Assembly (NCBI RefSeq): GCF_050320075.1
Contig: NZ_CP190018.1
DNA: 64,000 nt
Strand: one strand, 5' to 3'
Origin: Escherichia coli
GTDB lineage: Bacteria > Pseudomonadota > Gammaproteobacteria > Enterobacterales > Enterobacteriaceae
Below the pieces are notes generated by a model. The model was given only the letters and a program-made list of their open reading frames with translations, was not told the origin of the DNA and made no database searches. Below are positions 26,784 through 39,369 of the stretch, one piece after another. The translations under genes and the position numbers were made by a program. Position 1 is the stretch's first letter; the number at the start of each line of letters is the position of its first letter.

Positions 26784-27140
26784 TCAGAAAAGAGAAGATT
26801 GCTGTGGAATAGCCGGAACTGCTCCGATCTCTGGAAGCGTTTTACGTAAGTCTTCCCACAGGGTATGTACCAGTTCCGGGGCCTGGGCAATATCTGGCGT
26901 ATGTAAAAAAAGATAAGGCGTAGTGGTCTGATGCCACTGCGCTAATTTTTGTAACCAGACCTGAAATAATTCCCGGTTTTGCGTCATATCATCACTACCG
27001 ATAAAACGGATCAGCGGATTTGTCGCCGTCAGTACAGCATGTACCGGAACTTTAGGTTTTTTTCGTTGAGCGTCGCGAATAGCTTCACTGTGTGGACGTG
27101 CTGCATGAACCGGGCGGCTGTCTAAAATCATCAAGGTCTA
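26784..27140 (-). pseudogene. yecE: yecE (DUF72) C-terminal fragment, separated from its N-terminal part by the 12.2-kb insertion
   Basis: ..ILDSRPVHAARPHSEAIRDAQRKKPKVPVHAVL..PQQSSLF continues exactly from the fragment ending ..GVNRVI at 39363-39841. Confidence 0.9.
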
Positions 27141-27157
27141 AATGCACTACATGGGCA
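27125..27157. other. attL (attB left half / AAAATCA core / attP right arm GTCTAAATGCAC)
   Basis: Chromosomal CTGTCT + AAAATCA + element TCAAGGTCTAAATGCAC. See the att reconstruction finding. Confidence 0.75.
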
Positions 27158-27193
27158 CCTAAACATATACATGTGATGTTGAGGTGTTAGAAA

Positions 27194-27209
27194 GGGGGCT
27201 GTTCAGCCC
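27194..27209 (-). terminator. Hairpin downstream of the 306-aa gene
   Basis: GGGGCTG (27194-27200) pairs with CAGCCCC (27203-27209). On the minus strand it is followed by CTTTCT. Confidence 0.5.
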
Positions 27210-27218
27210 CTGATAGAC

Positions 27219-28139
27219 TTAGTAATTATCCCTGACAACTTCATCATATCTTTCAATGAAGGTTAGTTGTTTATTACTTCCATTATAACTATCAACCCAT
27301 TTGTCTACAGCTTCATCGAATAGAAATAAAAAATCCGTATAATTTATATACACTACATTATCATAATATTGGGTTGGGTGACCTCTTTTACATACAGCAA
27401 TACTAAGACGTCTTTCTTTACCCTGAGTAACTTTGTGTGAATTAAGATTAGTCATGTGAAGCAATGAGTTCCTTAATTCATATAATTCGTCGGAAGTTAC
27501 TCCAAGTTTTTGTATATCTGAGTATGTATCTAACCAATTTTGAAAGACTCTTCTTTTGTTTCCAAACTCAATATAAGCTATAGTATCAATAAATGACATT
27601 AATAGCTTGAAGCTTGACAAGTAATGTTTTTTGTTAAACAGAAGCTTTATTGGTTCCATATGGTCATCATTAAGAAGTTCCTTAATGTGAAAACCATCAT
27701 CTTTCATATACTTATCAAGATAGTCTGGCAAGTCTTTTACACCTTCAATGTGATAGTTAGGTGTGTGCTTATTCCTTAATTGCTCTGACATTGATAACTG
27801 AATATCATATTGTAATTTGCCTTTAACAACGGGGGTGACTATAGCTAAAGGGTTTTCAGGTGCATTTTGAGCTTCTAATGCTAATTCAAACGGAGCAAAA
27901 GGATTACCAATCCGCAAATTTGCATTATATCTTTCAAGTGTCAATTTGTCATTTTCTAAAACAGAAGGGTGTATCCCATAAAATAAACGACAAGAAGCTA
28001 AGTCAATCTCCAAATTCCGCTTTAAAAAATCTAATTTTTGCGCATCATCGCCATCATGTTCGTGAGGTACTATTCCGGCATGTGTGATATGAACTCCATC
28101 AGGACTAAAGCAAAATATGTTGTAGATAATCTCTTTCAT
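27219..28139 (-). CDS. Hypothetical accessory protein with a C-terminal HEPN-like RNSLLH (Rx4H) motif; possible Abi-type RNase
   Basis: 306-aa ORF, very AT-rich, at the element edge. R223-N-S-L-L-H228 is encoded at 27456-27473, within a helical C-terminal half. The N-terminus has a His/Asp cluster, HITHAGIVPHEHDGDD. Confidence 0.35.
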   Translation of the reverse strand: MKEIIYNIFCFSPDGVHITHAGIVPHEHDGDDAQKLDFLKRNLEIDLASCRLFYGIHPSVLENDKLTLERYNANLRIGNPFAPFELALEAQNAPENPLAIVTPVVKGKLQYDIQLSMSEQLRNKHTPNYHIEGVKDLPDYLDKYMKDDGFHIKELLNDDHMEPIKLLFNKKHYLSSFKLLMSFIDTIAYIEFGNKRRVFQNWLDTYSDIQKLGVTSDELYELRNSLLHMTNLNSHKVTQGKERRLSIAVCKRGHPTQYYDNVVYINYTDFLFLFDEAVDKWVDSYNGSNKQLTFIERYDEVVRDNY

Positions 28140-28400
28140 ACCATTCTAACCTTCAGTGAAAATAAAGTTTTAACTATCATTAGATTATGAACAATCACAA
28201 TTGGCCTGTAAATAACAGGGCATAAACAGGTTCGTTTAGCTTGATTTTATCACTATAACTGTCTGATTTAACGGTAACTCACCAAGTATACACACAGTAA
28301 TTACACAATCCTGTTATTATGTAACTTATTGAAATATATAAATAATTTTTACATTCTTTGTTTGGGGTAAGCTGTGTAATGTTAGTCGTCCCTCTCCAGA

Positions 28401-28444
28401 CACTATATATAGTGCTATATACAGGACTATATAACGATATATAG
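28401..28444. repeat. CTATATA box array (12-bp period), including the 14-bp palindrome CACTATATATAGTG
   Basis: CTATATA at 28403, 28415 and 28427, plus an inverted copy at 28438-28444. Palindrome at 28401-28414. Confidence 0.7.
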
Positions 28445-28742
28445 ATGTTTGGTCACATGGTATAACTATCAAACCACTTAACGATTTCCTACGTGAAAGT
28501 TAGAAAGTGATAGTTATAGTTACCTTGTCAAATCTTCGTAGTCCCTTCTTAAAAAATCGTGAAAGGTAATCTTGTTATCTATACAGAATCTACGTAGATG
28601 CTTCTTAGTGCGCAAAACAGCTATTATGTTAAAAACGCACTGTATACGTATCAGTACTGATTTATAAGGGTTTTGTGTATTGGCTGATAAGAGGCTATAC
28701 AGCACCTTGAGAGCATGTCTTCTAAGTCATTGACATATAAGG

Positions 28743-28820
28743 TCACAGAAGTTTGTAGCTGTTACAGAGAAAACTGGATAGGACTTCACAGAACTATAAA
28801 ATGTTACAGCTATTGATAGG
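28743..28820 (+). repeat. Two tandem 43-bp units TCACAGAA..GTTACAG..GATAGG
   Basis: TCACAGAA at 28743 and 28786; GTTACAG at 28761 and 28803; GATAGG at 28777 and 28815. Confidence 0.65.
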
Positions 28821-28832
28821 TGAAATCTTCTT

Positions 28833-29050
28833 GATAGATGCTTTGAAGTGTGGTGAAGGCTTTTTGAGGTGGGGCTAAACAGATATCATGAAGAAAGTCA
28901 ATAGTTGATTCGGTTTATCGAATAAACCTCATAGATATTTTAAAATTCTGCAAAGGGGGTCACATAGCTGGTGTGACGGGTACTTAGCAGCTACAGACAT
29001 CTATCAGATATTTTTGAAGATTTTTAGAAGGGGAATTTGAAGAGGGGCTA
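28833..29050 (+). repeat. Two ~45-bp degenerate direct repeats ending in TTTGARGWGGGGCTA, 172 bp apart
   Basis: Copies at 28833-28877 and 29005-29050 align over TTTGAAG..GAAGG..TTTGA(G/A)G(T/A)GGGGCTA. Confidence 0.6.
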
Positions 29051-29249
29051 CTACGATTTTATAAAAATTTTCAGATTCTGAAAAGTTACTGTACAGAATA
29101 TGTACAGATATCTTTAAAGTATCTGTAAAAACTTTTAAGATAAAAGATAGATATCCCAGAAAGGATATCCGTTTAGAAAACCTATTAAGTATCTCTTAAA
29201 AGAGAGTAAACCTTGTCAAGAGTGATTGCAATAAAAATTTTTATTTCTT

Positions 29250-29912
29250 ATGTCAATTGAGTGTATTTTAATCGGGAAACATCATGGGGGTTCTGATTAC
29301 TGGAGAACTCCATTTTTGTTATTTAAGAACTTACACCGTGAATTTATTTTCAGTCTGGATGGTGCTGCAACTAAGCACGATACGTTATTACCCCGCTTTA
29401 CGGATGATATTCACAATCAGTCATGGGATGGTGAACGGGTATTCTGTAACCCACCATACAGCGACACTAAAACATTCCTCGTAAAAGCGTCTGAGGCAGA
29501 TTTATCGGTATTCCTGATACCGTACCGACCCCAAACCATATACTGGCTTAAGCACATCTTCACAAACCCGCTTTGCCATGAAATCCGTATTCTTCATCGT
29601 GCAGTTAAATACCTTCCACCAGCAGGGCATAACAGGCTTACTATTAGGTCGCCGTTTCCAAGTGCAGTCGTTGTTTTTAAAAAAGAACCACGCAGGCATG
29701 AAATTACGCAGATGGTTTGCTGTGCTGATACATTGCTACCGTTAACCATCATTAACAGAGGAGGCTTGAGAGGAAGGCCCACCATTTACCCACCTGAGAC
29801 GCTCGACAGCTTCATAAAACTATACAGGCAAGGCAAACCCATTAAGTGCATTGCAGATGCTCTCAGAATGCCTCTGAGCACGTCATACAGGATTGCTCAA
29901 AGGTTGAGCTAG
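29250..29912 (+). CDS. Phage Dam-family N6-adenine DNA methyltransferase with a C-terminal HTH extension
   Basis: GSDYWRTPFLLF..FSLDGAAT..W.GERVFCNPPYSD matches the phage N6A-MTase family (DxWxTP, LDxAA, NPPY). Residues ~170-220 (GRPTIYPPETLDSFIKLYRQGKPIKCIADALRMPLSTSYRIAQRL) look like a resolvase-type HTH. Confidence 0.75.
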   Translation: MSIECILIGKHHGGSDYWRTPFLLFKNLHREFIFSLDGAATKHDTLLPRFTDDIHNQSWDGERVFCNPPYSDTKTFLVKASEADLSVFLIPYRPQTIYWLKHIFTNPLCHEIRILHRAVKYLPPAGHNRLTIRSPFPSAVVVFKKEPRRHEITQMVCCADTLLPLTIINRGGLRGRPTIYPPETLDSFIKLYRQGKPIKCIADALRMPLSTSYRIAQRLS

Positions 29913-30016
29913 AATTCTCATAAATATGGTCATTTACAAGACAGGTGATTTAGATATTAAGAGGTATCCCTGTGAACAATAAATGACCAATCAGTAATTA
30001 TCCTGTGAAATAATTG

Positions 30017-30045
30017 TTGCAATTTATAATCACACATGGTATAGT
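30017..30045 (+). promoter_or_regulatory. Sigma-70 promoter with extended -10
   Basis: TTGCAA (30017-30022), 17 nt spacer containing TGg, then TATAGT (30040-30045). Confidence 0.6.
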
Positions 30046-30052
30046 TTCATAG

Positions 30053-30255
30053 TGGACTGATAAAAAAGTTCATGTCTTGAAGTGGTAACACTTGGGGAGG
30101 TGTCAGATGATTGACGTATATTAACCTCTCATTCATGGTAATACCTCAGCGTTTTAATCATCGTACTGTTTCAGGCATGGACTTCTTTATCAGTCCATCA
30201 ATCCCCCAGATATTTTAATCACACAGGCTAATCGGTTTTATCCGGTTGGCCTTTT
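30053..30255 (+). ncRNA. Structured ~200-nt leader or small RNA ending in an intrinsic terminator just upstream of rep
   Basis: 22-nt closing helix 30053-30074 / 30176-30197 (20 WC pairs, 1 GU, 1 AC). GNRA hairpin at 30080-30093. Hairpin at 30095-30130. Terminator stem 30226-30235 / 30242-30251 followed by TTTT. Confidence 0.5.
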
Positions 30256-30276
30256 CACGTATGAGGTAATTTATGA

Positions 30277-31245
30277 ATGAAAAAAGAAACTAATGCTTTT
30301 ATTATGGTAGATAAACGAGTTGCACAATTCCCTAAAACATTAAAGCCAATTGACCGCTTGGTATATTTCACTATGCTGGATGGTGCTGATTATTACGAAT
30401 CTAAGTTCGGGAGATACGCACCAAGTATTGACTATTTGATGGTTATGTCTGGTGCTACACGTAATACAGTTATTGATTCACTTAAGAGACTTGAGTCACA
30501 CAGACTTATCGAAAAGACCAATGTAAAGGGTCAGCAAAGTATTTTTAAAGTATTCACGTTGGATGAGCGTCCAGAGGTCTTATCAGAACCTACCCTTGAT
30601 GAGCGTCGTAGAGCTAAATTATCAGGTCAACCAGAATCTGACAGTAACCCAACCAAAAATTGGTTACCTACCCAACCAGAATTTGGTTACCTACCTAACC
30701 AGAATTTGGTTACATGTAATACTGAATATAAAGACAAAAATATAAATACTGAAGAAGAAAGACTAAAAGGGAACTTTGAAGAAGAATCTCTTAAGAAGGG
30801 AGCTTCGCTCTGTGATTCACATGAATGTGATATTAAAGAAGATGACTTTCTTTCTTTGGATGAATTAAATGATTTTCTCTCTATGAATGAATCTGGCCTT
30901 GATAGTGAAGCTACTAAAGAGGCTGTTAAAAAGGAAGATAAAATCTCTGATGTGAATATCGATAGTGACCATAAAAACACACAGTGCCCCGCCACTGATG
31001 ATGAGATGGACCCCTTCGATGATTACCTTGATGAAGAGTCAGAGCGTGAAAAAGCCATTAAGAGGGTAGAGAAGAAAAAGAGATTCGAGCTTGCAAGACA
31101 AAAGAACAAAGTATCGGGTTTAGACCCATTCGATGACAGTGACGATGATGACTTTTCTTTCACACCAAGAAAGAAACAAACTCAGGATGACAAGAAGCAA
31201 AAAATTAAACCGAAGATGTATTTTGCTGGTGGAGGTATGCGCTAA
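30277..31245 (+). CDS. Replication initiator (N-terminal winged-HTH, acidic C-terminal tail)
   Basis: 322 aa. The N-terminus ..IDRLVYFTMLDGADYY..YLMVMSGATRNTVIDSLKRLESHRLIEK.. resembles HTH_36-type Rep or lambda-O-like initiators. Iterons lie inside the ORF. SD GAGGT at 30263-30267. Confidence 0.55.
   Translation: MKKETNAFIMVDKRVAQFPKTLKPIDRLVYFTMLDGADYYESKFGRYAPSIDYLMVMSGATRNTVIDSLKRLESHRLIEKTNVKGQQSIFKVFTLDERPEVLSEPTLDERRRAKLSGQPESDSNPTKNWLPTQPEFGYLPNQNLVTCNTEYKDKNINTEEERLKGNFEEESLKKGASLCDSHECDIKEDDFLSLDELNDFLSMNESGLDSEATKEAVKKEDKISDVNIDSDHKNTQCPATDDEMDPFDDYLDEESEREKAIKRVEKKKRFELARQKNKVSGLDPFDDSDDDDFSFTPRKKQTQDDKKQKIKPKMYFAGGGMR
30629..30719 (+). repeat. Iteron array (candidate ori): three 23-bp units plus one degenerate unit, each with an AACCAnAAnTTGGTT palindrome, followed by an AT-rich tract
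   Basis: Units start at 30651, 30674 and 30697 (AACCA(A/G)AATTTGGTTACCTACC). Degenerate unit at 30629-30650. AT-rich tract at 30715-30760. Confidence 0.65.
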
Positions 31246-31541
31246 TGAAAGAATATCACGGTGAAAAGAGATACAAAGATTACCTGTTAAAGCGTTATAG
31301 CATTTCTCGTGAAGGCCACTTAATGAAGGATACTCACGGGGAAGTTTACCGGATTAGACCGAAGAAAGAAGGGAGGGATTATTTCTTTTACGATGGTGTG
31401 ACAGATTTAAAGATTGATGCTTTGAAGTTTGCGGCGCTGTATCATTATGATATCTGGGACTCAGTCCACCAGCTACGATTAAAAGACGGTGACCCCGGTA
31501 ATCTGAGGGCCACCAATATTATCAAGGGAAAGTGCCGGTAA
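31245..31541 (+). CDS. Hypothetical 98-aa protein, weakly NUMOD4/HNH_3-like (degenerate)
   Basis: ATGA overlap with the rep stop; GGAGG SD. YSISREGHL.. and VHQLRLKDGDPGNLRATNI loosely recall homing-endonuclease-type DNA-binding modules. Confidence 0.3.
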   Translation: MKEYHGEKRYKDYLLKRYSISREGHLMKDTHGEVYRIRPKKEGRDYFFYDGVTDLKIDALKFAALYHYDIWDSVHQLRLKDGDPGNLRATNIIKGKCR

Positions 31542-31550
31542 GTCCACCAG

Positions 31551-31727
31551 CTATTTATTTATTGAAATCTCTATCTCAACACGAAGAAGTTTAAGTCGAA
31601 TTGTAAGCTTTGTCTTTTTTGTAATGACTCGATTCATAACGCAAAACACCAATAGCACAATAAATACCGCAAAGCCCAACGAGCTAAAACGATGAGATTC
31701 AATAATTGCTGTGAAAAAATCATGCAT
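31551..31727 (-). CDS. Small single-pass membrane protein (58 aa)
   Basis: MHDFFTAIIESHRFSSLGFAVFIVLLVFCVMNRVITKKTKLTIRLK... AAGGA SD 6 nt upstream. Own promoter at 31778-31806 on the minus strand. Confidence 0.45.
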   Translation of the reverse strand: MHDFFTAIIESHRFSSLGFAVFIVLLVFCVMNRVITKKTKLTIRLKLLRVEIEISINK

Positions 31728-31777
31728 TAATTTTCCTTTTGCGAAAGGAAACAGCACCTGTATCAGCCCCTATAACC

Positions 31778-31828
31778 ATAATATCATGTAAATGAGATGT
31801 TGACAATATGTTAAATAAATGTTATGAT
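31778..31828. promoter_or_regulatory. Back-to-back divergent sigma-70 promoters with overlapping -35 hexamers
   Basis: Plus strand: TTGACA (31800-31805), 17 nt, TATGAT (31823-31828). Minus strand: TTGTCA (complement of 31801-31806), 17 nt, TATTAT (complement of 31778-31783). Confidence 0.65.
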
Positions 31829-31864
31829 TGTAGTATGAGTAAGAGATTTAAGGAGATTTTTACA

Positions 31865-32155
31865 ATGACTCACACAGTTACGCGCCTTTTGCCAGAGGCA
31901 TTTGAACGACTGGCAGCAATCAAAGCCAAATATCCCGATATGAAGCACACAGCGCTTGTTGGAGAGCTTTTAAAAGAGTCGGTAACCCTGACCCCTTTCG
32001 ATAACGTTAAGGGCGTTGCAGAGGGTTCTAAGGCCATCAGAATCACAACGGACCAACTGGAACTACTCAAAGCACAGTCCGCAGTAGCAGGTTGCTCAAT
32101 GATTCAGGTGTTAAGCGCAAAGGTCCATCAATTAGCGGATAGGCTGGGGGTTTAA
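31865..32155 (+). CDS. Tandem ribbon-helix-helix (RHH) protein, candidate switch repressor
   Basis: 96 aa. Two strand-helix-helix patterns (TVTRLLPEAFERLAAIKAKY..HTALVGELLKES and AIRITTDQLELLKAQSAVAG.SMIQVLSAKVHQLADRL). AAGGAG SD at 31850-31855. Confidence 0.4.
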   Translation: MTHTVTRLLPEAFERLAAIKAKYPDMKHTALVGELLKESVTLTPFDNVKGVAEGSKAIRITTDQLELLKAQSAVAGCSMIQVLSAKVHQLADRLGV

Positions 32156-32580
32156 TGCTATGCACATTTGATTATCATGCGTTTTATCGCCATAGAGGCC
32201 ACCTTGTCCGTGAGAATAGCGGAACATGGAAAGATTTAACTCGTAATGCTGAACCCTTCACACACCAGCAATTAAAATCCCGCTTCTCCAGATGGAAGAA
32301 TGCACCAGCAGATACTGGTGATTTTGAGATTATCCATACCTTCGATTATGCCTCAGAAGATGACCTTCACGATGCAATTAAGCTGATTGAAGACTTCAAT
32401 ACCTCAGAAGATGTGGATGGTGACAAATATAAATCCCGTGGTAACCGCTATAACCGTGATGATATCACTCAGGCCATAAATGCTGGTCAATCTCAGCGAT
32501 ACATTACAGAAAAATATGGTATTTCACGGAGACAGTATTTCTACGTTAAATCATTGATTAATAAAGACAATTCAAAATAA
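32155..32580 (+). CDS. Hypothetical 141-aa protein with C-terminal HTH
   Basis: TAATG overlap with the upstream gene. The C-terminus DDITQAINAGQSQRYITEKYGISRRQYFYVKSL resembles a resolvase/terminase-small-type HTH. Confidence 0.4.
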   Translation: MLCTFDYHAFYRHRGHLVRENSGTWKDLTRNAEPFTHQQLKSRFSRWKNAPADTGDFEIIHTFDYASEDDLHDAIKLIEDFNTSEDVDGDKYKSRGNRYNRDDITQAINAGQSQRYITEKYGISRRQYFYVKSLINKDNSK

Positions 32581-32741
32581 CCATCTCAGTAACGGTAGAA
32601 TGCACTTTACAGGCAGAGTTGCACCTTAATTTGATAAATTACCTTACCAGCCAGTGCAACTCCCTCTGTAACCCGCATGATTACTGGTCTCAGAATGGCT
32701 ATTTTAAGAGGTCTGAGATGTGTTTTGTAGGAGATTTAAAA

Positions 32742-33065
32742 ATGAACAACTTCCCATTACAGATTTTCGTTGATAACGACACCGCTATGATGGTGCAAAG
32801 CTTCAGTGATGCAGGTATTAGCATTGATTTTGACAGGCTGTTAAAGCTAATGGCTGATAATGAAGAAAACGTCTCTGACTTTATTCACTCGGTGGAGTTT
32901 AACGAGCCTCGAATGATGTTACCAATTACAGACAGTAATATGAAAAGATTGGTTATTGAGCAAACGAACAAATACAGTATTTCCCCAGAGCAATTTTTGA
33001 AAGGTGCTGTGACAATCCTGTACAGCGATAATATTTTGGTTACGGATTCCGTGAGGGTTCACTAA
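32742..33065 (+). CDS. Hypothetical 107-aa protein
   Basis: ATG at 32742 preceded by GTAGGAG. The longer ORF-track start (32619) lies in a structured non-coding leader. Confidence 0.45.
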   Translation: MNNFPLQIFVDNDTAMMVQSFSDAGISIDFDRLLKLMADNEENVSDFIHSVEFNEPRMMLPITDSNMKRLVIEQTNKYSISPEQFLKGAVTILYSDNILVTDSVRVH

Positions 33066-33142
33066 TGGGCTTAATAATTGCTTGGACGTTGCTTGGCTTA
33101 TTTGTTGGTTGCTGGGTAGGCAGCACAGTAAATAGAAATTGA
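33065..33142 (+). CDS. Possible 25-aa hydrophobic peptide MGLIIAWTLLGLFVGCWVGSTVNRN
   Basis: TAATG stop-start overlap with the upstream ORF. GAGGG lies 7 nt upstream. One predicted TM helix. Confidence 0.3.
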   Translation: MGLIIAWTLLGLFVGCWVGSTVNRN

Positions 33143-33166
33143 TGTTACCAATCTGTTAAAAAGCTG

Positions 33167-33195
33167 TTGACAAATAACCTTAAGCATGAGATGAT
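33167..33195 (+). promoter_or_regulatory. Candidate promoter, paralogous to the 31800 promoter
   Basis: TGTTGACAA..17 nt..GATGAT, compared with TGTTGACAA..17 nt..TATGAT at 31798-31828. Confidence 0.4.
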
Positions 33196-33636
33196 GGTAA
33201 TAGGGGAGAGCAACTCTCTCTTATTTTTCTTTCAAAATAATCCGATGGATGGATATTCTGAATTGGAAAGGTGCAATGCTTTTCGTCATGGCCTTTCAGT
33301 TTAGTCTGAGAGGCTATCTCAAAAAGTGCTTAATCATTCATTGAACCCTTTACAGCTTTGCCCTAACTCATGATTAGGGCTTTCTTTAAGAGTTTTTAAA
33401 CAGAGCTTTTAAAGAAAGTTTTTCCTGAAACTTCGTTAACGTTAAAGCAAACCTTCAAAGCCCTTCACAGATGAGGATGATTCCATGAATATCCGAATCA
33501 CCTATGTTTAGGGCTTTTTTCAGCTTTTAAAAAGCATACTTGGCAAACGCCTTTTAAGCCTCTTCTAAGTTCGAGGATGTCAGGTGTGCTTTTTAAAAAC
33601 TGAAACATAAATTATCTTAGAAGAGGAAAGGTATTA

Positions 33637-34341
33637 ATGGCTATCCGTGATGAAAATGAAATGATTATTGAAAACAAACCAAGTGCACTTGATATTCACG
33701 AATTAAGTTTGCGTGAATCTTTTGATAGAGCTTGGCGGGAATCACACGAAGTAAATAAAGGTCCATATATTCCACCAGAACCACTCGAGATTCCAAGAGT
33801 TGAAATTGATTTTTCTATGAACGAACGGTGTGAACTTGATTTGAAGTTGAAGCTACAACGCCGATATTTCCAAGCTATTAAAGACTCTCAAGAAGCAATG
33901 AGAAGTGTTTATGAGAAAATTCAGTCCAAGCTTGAAGACGAAATTGACGAAATGGCTATTTTGATGGAGCTTCAAACCAATCCTTATGCTTATTTCTCTC
34001 GACTAGACCGTGACGGTTGGGGGTATGACCCTGTAGAGATTGGTAAAGTGATTGCAGATTTACCAGAAGGTCAAAGGGTTATTCGTACGGAAAGGGCCAT
34101 CAGAGCGCCACATCAACTGTCTCTAATTGTTGCTGATAAATCACAAGCTGAGCTTGAAGAAATTGCCAAAGAGAAACTGATGAAAGCAAGAGAAAATGAG
34201 ATTAATTTGCTGAAATCAAGACTGGCTAAGCTGATTAGTGACCATCAAGCGCTGGCTAAGGAGTACCGTCAAGAGTTGGCACAGATTATCAGCTTCAATG
34301 ATTTTCTGAGTGTTCCACGAGAATTTAGCAAGGCTGTTTGA
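33637..34341 (+). CDS. Hypothetical 234-aa coiled-coil-rich protein
   Basis: Good SD (GAGGAAAGG). Charged heptad-like C-terminal third. No family recognised. Confidence 0.5.
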   Translation: MAIRDENEMIIENKPSALDIHELSLRESFDRAWRESHEVNKGPYIPPEPLEIPRVEIDFSMNERCELDLKLKLQRRYFQAIKDSQEAMRSVYEKIQSKLEDEIDEMAILMELQTNPYAYFSRLDRDGWGYDPVEIGKVIADLPEGQRVIRTERAIRAPHQLSLIVADKSQAELEEIAKEKLMKARENEINLLKSRLAKLISDHQALAKEYRQELAQIISFNDFLSVPREFSKAV

Positions 34342-34364
34342 TTATGAATTAAAAGAGGTGATTA

Positions 34365-34583
34365 ATGTATGAAGACCGTTTGGAAACTATCAAGGCAGTT
34401 TGTGAAAAACTTAAAAACCAACCACGTAAACCAAAAACGGTAAAGAGTAAGCATCAGCCTGTCACCTCAAACAGCAAAATAAAGATTCGCAAAATTCCTT
34501 CGTGGTGCATTGACCGTATTCCGGTTGGTTCAAGAATTATTCGTGAAGATGGTGATTATCATTGGGTATCAGTTGTTGGTTAG
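34365..34583 (+). CDS. Hypothetical 72-aa basic protein
   Basis: AAGAGGTG SD. No family recognised. Confidence 0.45.
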   Translation: MYEDRLETIKAVCEKLKNQPRKPKTVKSKHQPVTSNSKIKIRKIPSWCIDRIPVGSRIIREDGDYHWVSVVG

Positions 34584-34598
34584 TTAGTAAAAATCTAC

Positions 34599-34638
34599 GG
34601 GAGAGATTATCGAGTGATATCGGTAGCTCTCCCTTTTT
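34599..34638 (+). terminator. Intrinsic terminator immediately upstream of the tape-measure gene
   Basis: GGGAGAG (34599-34605) pairs with CTCTCCC (34627-34633), with an inner helix, followed by TTTTT. Confidence 0.7.
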
Positions 34639-34671
34639 CGTATATGAACACTTAAGAGGTGAAAAATATGA

Positions 34672-36804
34672 ATGAGCAAATTCACAGTTGATAGTTTTAT
34701 CGTTGAATTAAGCTTCAATGAAAACATTATTAAGGGCTTGCAAAGAGTTGAAAAGGCAGCTTTGCAGTCAGCACAAAGAATTGAAAAGAACCTAAATAAA
34801 GGTTTCAGGATTAATACAAAGCAGCTTGATAGTAATTTAACGGCTTCTTTAGGGCAGCTTGAAAGGAAGTTTAATAAGGCCTTTGACAAGATTGAACAGA
34901 GAGCAAGAAATACTAAAGCTTTCCAGTTTACCACCAGATTTAATGACACTGTTAATCCTCCAAAACAACCGAGACAGCCACGAATTAGCGGCAACAGAGC
35001 AATCACAGCAGCTTACTCAGCGAATATGAGCAAGCTAAAAGGCTTTGACCCTATTTTGCAGAAATACATCAAATCTCAGTTTTACGGGCTATCTGCTAAA
35101 GCCGGTTCAATGGATTCTTCAAAATTCAATGAGAAGTTAGCTCAGTTAAACGCTTCAGTCAGAGAAGCAATTGCTAAAGCCAGAGGTCATACATCCACCA
35201 GCATTAATGGTGACAGAGCAGCTAATAGTCTTGATAACCTGTCTTCAGCAGCAGTTAAAACAGCAGGTGCATTTATCTCAATGCAGGCTGTATTAGCCAG
35301 TTATCAGAAGATTATGGAAATTGGTTTACAGCGTGCAAGTGCTGAACGTTCAATTGATTTCGTATTTGATAAAGATGCAGGTCAAGTAAAAGAGTTCACA
35401 AAGTCATTAGCTCAAACAACGGGTTTAGATATCGCTGAACTGCAATCACAGTTTGCTGGTTTTGGTGCTTCAGCTAAAGAGTCTATGGGCATTCAAGGTT
35501 CTGAAGAACTTTTTAAAAATATGATTGGCTATGCTCGTCTGATGGGGAGAAGTGAAGAAGAGATTAAGCGAGCACTGACAGCATTATCACAGATGGCTGG
35601 TAAGGGTCAGGTTATGGCTGAAGAGCTTAAGGGGCAATTAGCTGAAGCTGTTCCTGGTATGGTTCAGGTATTCGCTAAAGCAACCGGAAGGAATGAACAA
35701 GAGCTATTTGATGCCATGAAGAAGGGGGCTTTAAAATCTGCCGATACTCTTCAGAAGGTCACTCAGGAACTGAATAAACAAATCACCGCTAAAGGTGGCT
35801 GGAAAGCTATTTCAGAAAGTACACAGGCACAACTAGGGAACCTGAAAAACTCTTGGAATACCACGCTTGATAGTATCTTCAGAGGTTCTGAAGATGGTCT
35901 GCAAGATTTTACAAGAAGCTTAACAACGCTTTTAAACGCTCTTGGTGGAAGTGGTAAAAGTCTTGGTGAATCTCTTGGTAGTCTCATGACTTCTATGTCA
36001 CATGGTGTCGATTCATTGACTGATATCAGCTACAGGGTAAGAGCATTCTTCGATGAGGTGACATTAGCTTACCGTTCACTAAATGACACTCAGAAAAAAA
36101 TTGTTGATGGTTTATCTGATGGGTTAATTGATGGTTTGAAGATGCTTGCCGTAGCTGTTACTGCTCAAAAGGCTGCAAATGTAGCTGGAGGCTTGTTAAA
36201 CCTTGCAAATGCTGTTACTTCATTCGGTGATGCTGTTAATAAAGCTAAAGCTGGCAAGGCTGGTTCTTCAGGTGGTGCGCTAAATAAAGTTGGTAGAGTT
36301 GTTCTTTATGCTGAGTTGGTGAACTTTGCTCTTGATAATTTAAACCCTGAAGCGGCTAAGAATCCGAACTTACACCAATCAGGTATTGGAACAGAGACAA
36401 ACTTCAACCCTGAATACAAAGGCGATTCATCTAAACCAAACCAAATTAATGATGGATGGGCTAAGATTGGTAGTTCTATCGCTGACTGGTTTAATGGTGC
36501 GGCTAATAAAATTGCTAACTTCCAAGACCCGATGAATAACTTTGTTAATAACACACAATCAACTCCACCAGCTATCACAGGTGACATGGTTAATAGCAAT
36601 GCTCAACTTGCTATGGCTGTATCAGAGTTAGGAAGAAAGGTAGACGCTTTAACAGTAGAAGCTAAGAAGCCTTTATCAGTTAATATCAAAGGTGAAGCAA
36701 TTGTTAGACCGGATGAACCAGCTTTCTTTACTTTCAATCAATCAGCTAATGACCAGTTCACGCAGGATATGCTCTTAAGTTCAAGCTATCCAGAGGAAGA
36801 ATGA
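34672..36804 (+). CDS. Phage tail tape measure protein
   Basis: 710 aa. The segment ..RALTALSQMAGKGQVMAEELKGQLAEAVPGMVQVFAKATGRNEQELFDAMKKGALKS.. matches the conserved tape-measure core (lambda-type tape_meas domain). Long helical, Gly/Ala-rich remainder. Confidence 0.8.
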   Translation: MSKFTVDSFIVELSFNENIIKGLQRVEKAALQSAQRIEKNLNKGFRINTKQLDSNLTASLGQLERKFNKAFDKIEQRARNTKAFQFTTRFNDTVNPPKQPRQPRISGNRAITAAYSANMSKLKGFDPILQKYIKSQFYGLSAKAGSMDSSKFNEKLAQLNASVREAIAKARGHTSTSINGDRAANSLDNLSSAAVKTAGAFISMQAVLASYQKIMEIGLQRASAERSIDFVFDKDAGQVKEFTKSLAQTTGLDIAELQSQFAGFGASAKESMGIQGSEELFKNMIGYARLMGRSEEEIKRALTALSQMAGKGQVMAEELKGQLAEAVPGMVQVFAKATGRNEQELFDAMKKGALKSADTLQKVTQELNKQITAKGGWKAISESTQAQLGNLKNSWNTTLDSIFRGSEDGLQDFTRSLTTLLNALGGSGKSLGESLGSLMTSMSHGVDSLTDISYRVRAFFDEVTLAYRSLNDTQKKIVDGLSDGLIDGLKMLAVAVTAQKAANVAGGLLNLANAVTSFGDAVNKAKAGKAGSSGGALNKVGRVVLYAELVNFALDNLNPEAAKNPNLHQSGIGTETNFNPEYKGDSSKPNQINDGWAKIGSSIADWFNGAANKIANFQDPMNNFVNNTQSTPPAITGDMVNSNAQLAMAVSELGRKVDALTVEAKKPLSVNIKGEAIVRPDEPAFFTFNQSANDQFTQDMLLSSSYPEEE

Positions 36805-36967
36805 TTTCTTATATATCCGTGTGCTACGTGATTTCTTCTGAACAGATATACCCACTAAAAATTATTTTTTACGTAGCTCACGCTTAACAGAGAAAATACT
36901 TATATATCAAAGGCTTGGTTAAAAATGATTAAAATACACTAAGCCTTTGAAATCAAAGGAGAATTTA

Positions 36968-37741
36968 ATGATTTACTCTAATCAGATTCGTTACAGTGGT
37001 AAAGATGGCGTTTACTTTCATCTACAAGGCCAGCCAGATAATTTCTTGTCACTATCAGCTACTGAGAACATGGAATTTGACAGCCCTATGATGGTTACCA
37101 CTCAAAATATGCAATCAGGGCAGACTGTCACAGATAATGTAATGCGTTCACCCAGAACTATTTCAATCAGTGGTGTGGTTGTAGTTGGTGAATCCGGTAG
37201 TATCCTTATCTCAAGAGATAATAAGCTGGTGGAAAACTTCATAGACACTCTTGAAAACTGGCGTGACCAGAAGCAAATTATCTCAGTTGTCTGTAAAGAT
37301 GGTATTAAGATTGACGACTCAATTATTACAAACTTTAAAGCCTCTAAAGATGTTGGTATTGCCAATGGTCTTAGAATCCAATTAACTTTTCAGGAAATTA
37401 ACTTTAAAGCTATTGTGGGTCAGACTGATATCTCGGCTGCGACCGGAAGGACTTCTACCACAAGTGATGGTGGTGCTACCAGTAAAAAGAATACAGGGAA
37501 CACTACGACAAGCTTAGGTAACGGTATGTTGATGTGTCAGGAGCTATATAATCGCTCTACGAGTGAACTTACTAATGAGCAACTTCAAGCCCGTATCAAT
37601 TGTGGTAAAAATGTCAGAGTTAAGAACGGAAAAAGCACCTTCTCAGATGCCGCTAATGAGCAAGCTTCAAAGGTGCTTAATAATGCTGGTACAGGTAGTA
37701 CTTTGAAGAAGTATTCTGTTAATCCTAACAAGCGATACTGA
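36968..37741 (+). CDS. Tail-tip or distal-tail-like protein (family usually encoded just after tape-measure genes)
   Basis: 257 aa from [14 protein letters not shown].. (AAGGAG SD at 36956). The pattern [30 protein letters not shown] .. [12 protein letters not shown] resembles Dit-like tail proteins. Confidence 0.4.
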
Positions 37742-37755
37742 CGATAGAATCTCAA

Positions 37756-39279
37756 CTATATGATAACCTCATCAACATCTATTAAACCCCTCTCAGTGAC
37801 TTCAGAAAGCGACTGTATAGCCTCTGTAACGTTGTCTGAGGGGTTTTCTGTTATTGGTAAGGTGATTGCTTTACCGTTGTGAAAAGTTACTTTACAGCGA
37901 CGTTTAGCAGTATTTAAAACGACCTCTTTAACAGCACTTTTGATTATCAGTTGTGCTTCAATCCTTCCCGCCTTTGTAGTCAAGTCACAATCAGACAAAC
38001 AACCCACATCAATAGATTTAAGGCGTTGTGTCTCCTTCTCGATATCCGCATCAACTTGTGATAGCTCATTCTTTAGTTGTCTTAGTTTGCTGGTAATAGC
38101 GGACAAGTCTTCAATTTCAAGTGATAGCTGTACCAGCTTTTCAATATTGCTTGAGATGTGTTCACGGTGTAGCTTCAGTGTGTCTATGGTATTCGTCATA
38201 TCGCTATCAAATCGGTCAAGACGAGATAGCAGGGCAAGCAATGTACCATCGGTTTGCTTACGTGAAAGTCCTTTAGCACTACAACGGTTTTCATTACGAA
38301 GAGGACAACGATAAATCCCGTTTCTTGTATCGCTAAAGCCTGTGATAATCAAAGCATGACCACATTCAGAACAACGGATAACACCTTTGAAAAGATTCAC
38401 AGCCATTGGCTTATCTGAAGCAGGTTTTCTACCGTAACGAGCATATGATAGTTGTTGAACTTTGTAGAATGTTGTTTCATCTATAATTGCAGGATAATAA
38501 CCAGATATCTCCTCACAGCCTTTAGGTGTGAAGTAACCAATTACAGAGCGATTCTTCAAAAGGTCTTGCACTGAGGTTTGACCAAACTTACCTGCTTTGT
38601 ACTGGTTAAGCGTCTGGTGACCTTCAGCATTAAGAGTTCTGACAATCTCCCAGATAGACTTACCCTCTAACCGTAGCTGAAAGCACCTCTTCACAGTCTC
38701 CACTTTCTCAGGTATCACAGAGAAGCTTTTACGGTCATCATTAAGCTTAAGCCATGCAGGACAACGCCTAGAAATCTTGATACCAGCTTTAGCAGCTTCT
38801 TTCTTTGCATCCCATGCAGCTTGTATACGCTCAGCCTTACGTAATGATTCCTCATGCGCCCTTTGCATTATCAAAATGCTTTTAATCAGAGCTAACGGGT
38901 CTTTAAGAGATTCCCTTGTGTAATGTTCACCATCGGACAGGGTGACTACATCTACACCAGAGCGAAGAATGTTTCTGAGTAGCTCACTTGCTTGGTCTAC
39001 GTCCTGACGTGAGAGACGGTCTAAACTCTCGATTAGTAGTGTATCACCAGCTTTAACAAGCCCTTTCTCGATAGCGGTTAAAAAGTCACCTAAGCCACCT
39101 TTCAAGTGCTTACCAGTGAACCCGCTAACGCCTAAATCACGAAAAGTAAGGGATTCATCCAGATAGTACTCAGGATGAGCCTTAAGCCAATCAGTGACCA
39201 TCTTAGCCTGTCGTCTTAATGAGTCGCCTCTGGATTGCTTCTCAGATGAAAACCGGATGTAACTGATTGCACGTTTCAT
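37756..39279 (-). CDS. Large serine recombinase (integrase)
   Basis: 507 aa. N-terminal resolvase catalytic domain (AISYIRFSSEKQSRGDSLRRQ), recombinase domain, Cys-rich zinc ribbon (CSECGH..YRCP..C), and C-terminal coiled coil. Confidence 0.9.
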   Translation of the reverse strand: MKRAISYIRFSSEKQSRGDSLRRQAKMVTDWLKAHPEYYLDESLTFRDLGVSGFTGKHLKGGLGDFLTAIEKGLVKAGDTLLIESLDRLSRQDVDQASELLRNILRSGVDVVTLSDGEHYTRESLKDPLALIKSILIMQRAHEESLRKAERIQAAWDAKKEAAKAGIKISRRCPAWLKLNDDRKSFSVIPEKVETVKRCFQLRLEGKSIWEIVRTLNAEGHQTLNQYKAGKFGQTSVQDLLKNRSVIGYFTPKGCEEISGYYPAIIDETTFYKVQQLSYARYGRKPASDKPMAVNLFKGVIRCSECGHALIITGFSDTRNGIYRCPLRNENRCSAKGLSRKQTDGTLLALLSRLDRFDSDMTNTIDTLKLHREHISSNIEKLVQLSLEIEDLSAITSKLRQLKNELSQVDADIEKETQRLKSIDVGCLSDCDLTTKAGRIEAQLIIKSAVKEVVLNTAKRRCKVTFHNGKAITLPITENPSDNVTEAIQSLSEVTERGLIDVDEVII

Positions 39280-39340
39280 TGTTCACCTCACCAATAGCAG
39301 TTGGGCTTGTACCAACCCCTAGATTGTATCGCTTTAGATG

Positions 39341-39369
39341 GTGTATTTAAACGTGTCTAATAAAAATCA
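39341..39369. other. attR (attP left arm GTGTATTTAAAC / AAAATCA core / attB right half follows)
   Basis: Element GTGTATTTAAACGTGTCTAAT + AAAATCA, then chromosomal CCCGATTAACG. Confidence 0.75.

Follow-up and report, generated by a model that had tools for sequence, protein, structure and literature searches.

A probable new family of HEPN-like single-gene defense proteins, found as optional cargo of an island in Escherichia coli yecE

What is encoded by the solitary gene at the left edge of a mobile island in Escherichia coli, and does it serve in defense against phages? The gene lies in a stretch of 64,000 nucleotides from contig NZ_CP190018.1 (RefSeq assembly GCF_050320075.1), which we refer to as the window and whose numbering is used throughout. 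The open reading frame (ORF) occupies positions 27219..28139 on the minus strand, begins with ATG, and encodes 306 amino acids, as given by the ORF list and by the RefSeq annotation of identical loci. Its product is identical to RefSeq WP_000658747.1, which is labeled 'hypothetical protein'. An initial annotation of this DNA had proposed an abortive-infection RNase on the basis of a HEPN-like motif, RNSLLH, and the place and length that it gave for the gene, as well as the location of the motif (R223-H228, 27456..27473), agree with the ORF list. The gene probably represents a new family of HEPN-like single-gene defense proteins, whose function we infer. The complete reading that we favor, in which a two-domain, single-polypeptide HEPN-like nuclease acts in abortive-infection defense and travels as optional cargo of the island, has in our judgment about an even chance of being correct.

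The evidence begins with the relatives of the protein. A word-indexed search returned 59 family clusters at 90% identity, and an exhaustive hidden Markov model (HMM) search returned 1,001 representatives at 50% identity with E<=1e-3, including 393 with E<=1e-10. The family members are unnamed and carry no Pfam domain. The same is true of all 120 matches listed in a second homolog search, which used a profile of the C-terminal domain and was meant to bridge to annotated families. When one genome per species was scanned, 90 loci were found, distributed among Gamma-, Beta-, and Alphaproteobacteria, Acidobacteriota, Bacteroidota, Verrucomicrobiota, Planctomycetota, Chloroflexota, Desulfobacterota, and Leptospirales. 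These loci are scattered thinly and unevenly over at least 8 phyla.

We counted conserved residues in 71 full-length representatives (alignment A4), for which the mean column identity is approximately 30%. R223 is invariant (71/71), H228 is present in all except one sequence (70/71), and N224 is found in 68 of the 71, the remainder having Ser or His at this position. K178 and W281 are likewise invariant (71/71 each), and D185 is retained in 70/71. Near the C-terminus, R297 (69/71), Y298 (68/71), and D299 (66/71) are also strongly conserved. Homologs that consist of the C-terminal domain alone keep the same Arg, His, and Asp residues. Conservation of the motif among homologs had been named as a check by the initial annotation, and on this point its expectation is borne out.

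It is this conservation, and not the mere occurrence of the motif, that forms the signal. Composition-preserving shuffles of the protein contain Rx4H in 43% of cases, Rx4-6H in 82%, and R[NDH]x3H in 11%, and an Rx4H in one sequence is therefore weak evidence that falls within chance. The proposed HEPN Rx4-6H signature with a polar residue after the Arg thus holds up through the family-wide retention of R, N, and H and through the position of the motif at a helix end, and not through the motif in this protein alone.

Structure prediction with AlphaFold2, supplied with the family alignment, gave a predicted local distance difference test score (pLDDT) of 90.4 and a predicted template modeling score (pTM) of 0.83 for the full-length protein, and a pLDDT of 92.2 for the isolated C-terminal domain. 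In the model, an N-terminal alpha/beta domain (residues 1 to ~134; 27738..28139, minus strand; pLDDT ~90) consists of strands at residues 3–12, 20–28, and 98–105 and helices at 32–49 and 68–90. The HEPN-like helical domain that follows (residues 135–306; 27222..27737, minus strand) coincides with the conserved core of the family, which is about 172 residues long. It begins with helices 152–169 and 173–192, the second of which contains both K178 (codon at 27606-27608) and D185 (codon at 27585..27587, minus strand). A short helical insert (198–212) leads to helix 216–228, which ends in the candidate catalytic Rx4H motif (27456..27473, minus strand), and a beta-containing insert (~229–266), a helix (267–283), and a last helix (290–305) complete the domain. 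In the full-length model R223-H228 forms the end of helix 216–228, whereas in the domain-only model H228 falls in the next loop, past a helix that stops at R223.

By the published definition, two alpha-hairpins make up the four-helix up-down bundle of HEPN domains, and helices 2 and 3 are often separated by an insert (PMC3710099). Their Rx4-6H motif closes helix 3 or opens the next loop, with a polar residue (N, D, or H) after the Arg, and helix 2 carries a conserved acidic residue, typically in the context Ex3[KR] (PMC3710099). In the predicted structure of the 306-residue protein, the conserved motif is found where core helix 3 gives way to the loop, N224 is the polar residue directly after the conserved Arg, an insert separates helices 2 and 3, and helix 2 contributes D185. 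The last of these is Asp rather than the usual Glu, lies outside an Ex3[KR] context, and was assigned by its helix position in the model. The agreement of these modeled positions with the published description is suggestive, and the C-terminal half resembles an RNA-cutting HEPN domain of divergent type.

The N-terminal domain is less well conserved than the C-terminal domain, with a mean top-residue fraction of 0.41 versus 0.53, and its conserved residues are N7, G22, L39, D46, and T102. A His/Asp cluster near its start had been put forward as a possible metal site. H17 and H20 are each kept in 7/71 representatives and H28 in 5/71, and the only positions near the cluster that are maintained are H26 (48 His and 21 Tyr of 71), G30 (60/71), and D32 (57/71). 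The cluster is specific to the query sequence, and a metal site is therefore unsupported.

The N-terminal domain is lacking in many homologs. These are commonly stand-alone C-terminal domains of approximately 180 amino acids whose genes lie on long contigs and are not preceded by an N-domain gene, and in one homolog (P0169) an unrelated N-terminal region takes the place of this domain. We also considered proteins that would consist of the N-terminal domain only, and rejected this class after the apparent matches proved to be fragments caused by frameshift or truncation. The domain border (query residues ~134–140, window ~27720-27740) has a conserved element, M-[PD]-D-[YW]-L, whose Met is the first residue of many stand-alone proteins. 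A Met is also present at this border in many full-length relatives, and the query has Leu. As judged from these sequences, some full-length genes might make a short isoform from the internal start.

We propose a divergent HEPN-type helical bundle for the C-terminal 170 residues, in which R223, N224, and H228, aided by D185 of the second helix, would constitute a metal-independent RNase site. Dimerization would complete this putative site, by analogy to RnlA, HepT, and Csm6. The N-terminal domain would be a swappable and dispensable module that probably silences the nuclease until a phage cue is sensed. Upon activation, cellular and/or phage RNA would be cut and growth would stop, such that sister cells and the island are protected by abortive infection. 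The gene would be optional cargo, housed beside attL in a variable slot of the 12.2-kb serine-recombinase island in yecE.

We examined the genomic neighborhoods of relatives by all-against-all clustering of the 935 ORFs located within 6 kb of 78 homologs. No conserved partner or antitoxin gene was detected in the 78 loci, nor did tblastn of candidate upstream ORFs against the window reveal one. The largest neighbor family (8 loci) fits, by size and position, the serine recombinases recovered in a Pfam scan and at one annotated locus. This Pfam scan covered 148 ORFs within 3 kb of 26 diverse loci, and the most common families were Resolvase (5), Phage_integrase (4), Recombinase (3), AAA_21 (3), AAA_15 (2), OLD-like TOPRIM (2), RVT_1 (2), and rve (2). 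Serine and tyrosine recombinases, ATPases, and reverse transcriptases are thus well represented among the neighbors. A nucleotidyltransferase family was not present among the 25 most frequent of the 111 Pfam families matched.

Several homologs reside on mobile DNA or near established defense genes. In Stenotrophomonas the homolog adjoins Shedu and an Mrr-nSTAND protein, and another homolog occurs in a different serine-recombinase island that also carries Shedu. Other representatives are located near AbiV, on a small mobilizable element, and, flanked by integrases, at one edge of a satellite or prophage. This pattern is as expected for a single-gene defense or toxin module.

Some of the neighborhoods contain additional genes of interest. 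At the Stenotrophomonas locus, a 218-aa gene directly upstream of the homolog (L005:7222-7878) also has an R-N-x3-H motif, RNRLVH, and by sequence the pair may be tandem HEPN-like genes. In three loci (L019:5001-6410, and also L020 and L021), a 183-aa stand-alone C-terminal domain is followed 28 nucleotides later by a gene for a 276-aa CAP12/Pycsar-type TIR protein (PF10137, E 2e-38), and this arrangement may be a two-gene variant of the system.

The location of the gene in E. coli is also consistent with a cargo function. Alignment of both junctions to intact yecE of strain K-12 shows that yecE is split by an AT-rich insert of 12,239 base pairs (27131..39369). A core sequence, AAAATCA, is common to the left junction inside yecE (attL, 27124..27130) and the right junction (attR, 39363..39369). 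The element is a serine-recombinase island in yecE and not a complete or ordinary prophage, and the earlier description of prophage 'early genes' was loosely right at most. Between the left junction and a non-coding stretch of 1.1 kb (28140-29249), the 306-aa gene is the sole ORF of any size, and it is oriented opposite to the other island genes. Its GC content is 32.7%, compared with 38.6% for the island and approximately 50% for the chromosomal flanks. The initial annotation was correct in describing the gene as isolated in this interval, divergent in orientation, and AT-rich.

Related islands are present in approximately 450–530 of 5,426 complete E. coli genomes, or about 8–10% of them, and the gene itself is found in 13 of the 5,426. 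We compared the copies (window 27219-28139 versus NZ_CP038380.1 and others; NZ_CM132283.1), and the 12 intact copies are 100% identical to one another in DNA sequence. The 13th, in strain 18AR0366, is split near codon 233 by IS5. In O157 strains, the matched stretch of 1,805 nucleotides that includes the gene is 98.6% identical, and its ~25 differences are all located in the adjoining yecE stub and in non-coding DNA. Because identical gene copies stand beside diverged flanking DNA, these sequences suggest recent lateral spread. A tblastn search of plasmids recovered the gene in 5 records only.

In H22-type islands (39 genomes) the same slot is occupied by a different protein of 277 amino acids, and in most sister islands the slot is empty. 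Since the gene, another protein, or nothing may be found at the same position, the site next to attL is a variable cargo slot, and the presence of the gene varies within an otherwise conserved element. The alternative cargo of E. coli H22 (L003:3126-3959) has a long coiled coil and, in its N-terminal part, two predicted membrane helices, and matched no Pfam or PADLOC family.

A number of results weigh against a HEPN nuclease with a defense function. No match was found for the query in Pfam, NCBIfam, or PADLOC at E<=10 by hmmscan, and no family recurred when 39, 28, and 71 relatives were scanned in a similar way against Pfam and PADLOC. Profile searches against PDB sequences yielded nothing or chemoreceptor noise. 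Comparison by hhalign to a profile of the AbiV family that we built gave a probability of 2%, and comparison to the single RnlA sequence gave 0.3–0.4%. There is thus no significant profile match to any established HEPN family. Foldseek against PDB also returned nothing (best E 0.24), and the 38-residue beta-containing insert between helices 3 and 4 is unusual for HEPN domains. With respect to defense, some stand-alone homologs sit among housekeeping genes, the association with defense genes comes from a handful of neighborhoods without a matched control, and the 306-aa gene had no tblastn match in 50,697 phage records. The PADLOC and Foldseek searches had been recommended by the initial annotation, and neither returned the match that it anticipated.

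Weak similarities do occur in these searches. Matches to PHROGs were confined to families of unknown function (best E 0.0068), and PADLOC-DB v2.0.0 gave 0 families for the query and scattered single matches at chance level among the 71 relatives. In the hhalign comparison to AbiV, D185 is set opposite the invariant Glu of helix 2, in a match that is not significant. The sole local alignment to RnlA covers 10–11 residues (RHSLFHM in RnlA and RNSLLHM in the query; E 0.15–0.18, not significant) and corresponds to the segment R318-H323, residues of which are catalytic in RnlA (PMC8266594). Fold-search scores are marginal and other helical bundles score equally, and the evidence from modeled folds is suggestive and not decisive. 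At most, the protein founds a new family of the HEPN superfamily.

These negative results are what would be expected if the domain is not HEPN at all. In such a case it would be a novel helical domain that conserves R, N, H, D, and K for some other chemistry or for structure, and its likeness to the HEPN motif would be coincidental. The failure of all sequence and profile searches against known families, the marginal fold-search scores, and the frequency of Rx4H motifs by chance are all in its favor, and on the other side are the near invariance of R, N, and H across a divergent family and the modeled position of the motif at a helix end. We regard this explanation as unlikely.

A further alternative accepts a HEPN-like fold and dispenses with the nuclease. 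The protein would bind a nucleotide or RNA and serve as a regulator or adaptor, for example as a partner of another effector, in the manner of the HEPN domains that are found beside nucleotidyltransferases. HEPN domains without catalysis usually lose the Rx4-6H motif (PMC3710099), whereas R, N, and H are essentially invariant in this family, and no nucleotidyltransferase or other partner is conserved nearby. A non-catalytic role is decidedly unlikely on these grounds.

The HEPN-like nuclease that we favor can be compared to several named systems. Abi_2 proteins (AbiD/AbiD1/AbiF, PF07751) are single-gene units on mobile DNA with a motif of the R-N-x3-H type in a helical C-terminal region. The 306-aa protein has these features in common with Abi_2, and the same mode of action would be expected, in keeping with the published HEPN description (PMC3710099). 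Membership in Abi_2 was rejected, as neither the query (E<=10) nor the 39, 28, and 71 relatives (families reported at E<=1 to 5) matched PF07751, and the resemblance to Abi2/AbiD/AbiF proteins noted in the initial annotation finds no counterpart in Pfam, NCBIfam, or PADLOC. On the same profile searches we rejected membership in RnlA, HepT, or any other catalogued HEPN family.

RnlA requires the antitoxin RnlB, which is encoded by the gene directly downstream. Unlike RnlA and LsoA (RNase LS of E. coli), the 306-aa family has no conserved partner gene, shows no significant sequence or profile similarity beyond the 10–11 residues described above, and lacks a match to the RnlA families of Pfam. 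Its N-terminal domain is also much shorter than that of RnlA. HepT and other HEPN toxins of HEPN-MNT modules are 120–150 amino acids in length and are paired with an MNT nucleotidyltransferase antitoxin. Compared with the structures of such toxins (PDB 5yep, 7ae2, 8xdj, 4nqf, 1wwp, and 1ylm), the C-terminal domain has the additional beta insert of 38 residues and a fifth helix that carries the conserved R-Y-D. In contrast to HepT-MntA, a nucleotidyltransferase was not found among the 25 most frequent Pfam families of the neighboring ORFs. Finally, the protein differs from Csx1/Csm6 CARF-HEPN effectors in that it lacks a CARF domain and a CRISPR context and does not match them significantly in sequence; the score of one relative against the PADLOC Csx1 model (E 0.0057) is within chance for 71 queries.

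If our interpretation is correct, an uncatalogued and widespread family (at least 1,000 clusters at 50% identity in at least 8 phyla) joins the HEPN abortive-infection nucleases. The family is missed by Pfam, NCBIfam, and PADLOC, and is therefore uncounted in defense censuses. Its modular layouts, with the C-terminal domain alone, with this N-terminal domain, with another N-terminal domain, or beside a TIR gene, would provide a compact model of how HEPN nucleases are gated. HEPN abortive-infection nucleases are already well known, and what is new here is the uncatalogued broad family, the unusual beta insert, and the new N-terminal domain. In addition, the locus draws attention to a hotspot for cargo beside attL in a common E. 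coli island, itself possibly a satellite of virulent phages.

The content of the island bears on this possibility. It encodes a Dam-like methyltransferase with a helix-turn-helix domain (29250-29912), a lambda-O-like replication initiator with iterons (30277-31245), a tape measure protein (34672-36804), a Dit-like protein (36947-37741), and, at its right edge, a large serine recombinase of 507 amino acids (37756-39279, minus strand), as well as several small unknown proteins. The tape-measure and Dit-like genes are the only structural genes. The Dit-like protein shares 70% identity with a protein encoded beside the tape measure gene of virulent Felix O1-like myophages (299 phage records), and the DNA of the two genes (34672-37741) is approximately 79–80% identical in parts to these phages. 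More surprising than the 306-aa gene is that the island has these two genes in common with virulent Felix O1-like phages. The island may be an undescribed satellite of these phages, and in its features it resembles either a PLE-like satellite or a tail decoy directed at Felixounaviruses. The literature that we consulted contained nothing relevant on the WP accession, on yecE hotspots, or on a link between satellites and Felixounavirus.

Such a relationship raises the question of whether the gene serves the island rather than the host. As a satellite- or island-specific factor, it would act on a helper phage or on the island life cycle through interference, regulation, or packaging. The identity of the tape-measure and Dit-like genes to those of Felix O1-like phages (70% in protein and ~80% in DNA) and the position of the gene next to the conserved 1.1-kb non-coding region are in line with such a role. 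However, only 13 of the ~450–530 related islands have the gene, which is therefore dispensable for the island. One of these copies is disrupted by IS5, and homologs are found in unrelated elements and in phyla without such an island. This explanation appears very unlikely. A prophage moron, that is, a gene carried in a complete temperate phage genome, was rejected, as the element is 12.2 kb in length with tape-measure and Dit-like genes as its only structural genes, and the gene is unmatched in phage records. The suggestion of moron or defense cargo therefore fails for the moron and holds for cargo, given the variable slot and the homologs on mobile elements and beside defense genes.

The favored reading of the gene can be extended to the island as a whole. 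The new HEPN family would then be a self-contained sensor-nuclease system for abortive infection and an exchangeable cargo of an island not described so far, either a PLE-like satellite of virulent Felix O1-like phages or a tail decoy against them. The island with its cargo would provide a layered defense against lytic phages in ~8–10% of E. coli. We consider this combined proposal rather unlikely in its entirety.

Several further sequence features are present near the gene. A GC-rich hairpin (GGGGCU-GAAC-AGCCCC; 27195..27210, minus strand) is located 8 nucleotides past the stop codon, with a predicted folding energy of -11.1 kcal/mol (z -2.26). The initial annotation had described this element as the gene's own hairpin terminator. 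The hairpin is confirmed by RNA folding, but the U tract that follows is interrupted (CUUUCU) and a consensus terminator scan did not call it; it is possibly a weak intrinsic terminator. A promoter-like sequence, TTTACA-17-CATAAT (28184..28212, minus strand), is found ~45 nucleotides upstream of the ATG and has 10/12 consensus matches. The total of promoter-like sites in the region is not above that of shuffles, and this one is thus only a candidate.

The gene-free stretch adjacent to the 306-aa gene (28140-29249) has a GC content of 33% and keeps 80–90% identity across hundreds of related islands, even those without the cargo gene. An Rfam scan of the island, including this stretch, gave no match. 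It carries terminator-like hairpins at 29089-29107 and 29149-29170, and in some genomes it adjoins a recombinase gene instead. Within the ORF of the replication initiator, three tandem repeats of 23 nucleotides (ACCCAACCAAAAATTGGTTACCT-like; 30647-30715) look like the iterons of an origin that is embedded in the initiator gene.
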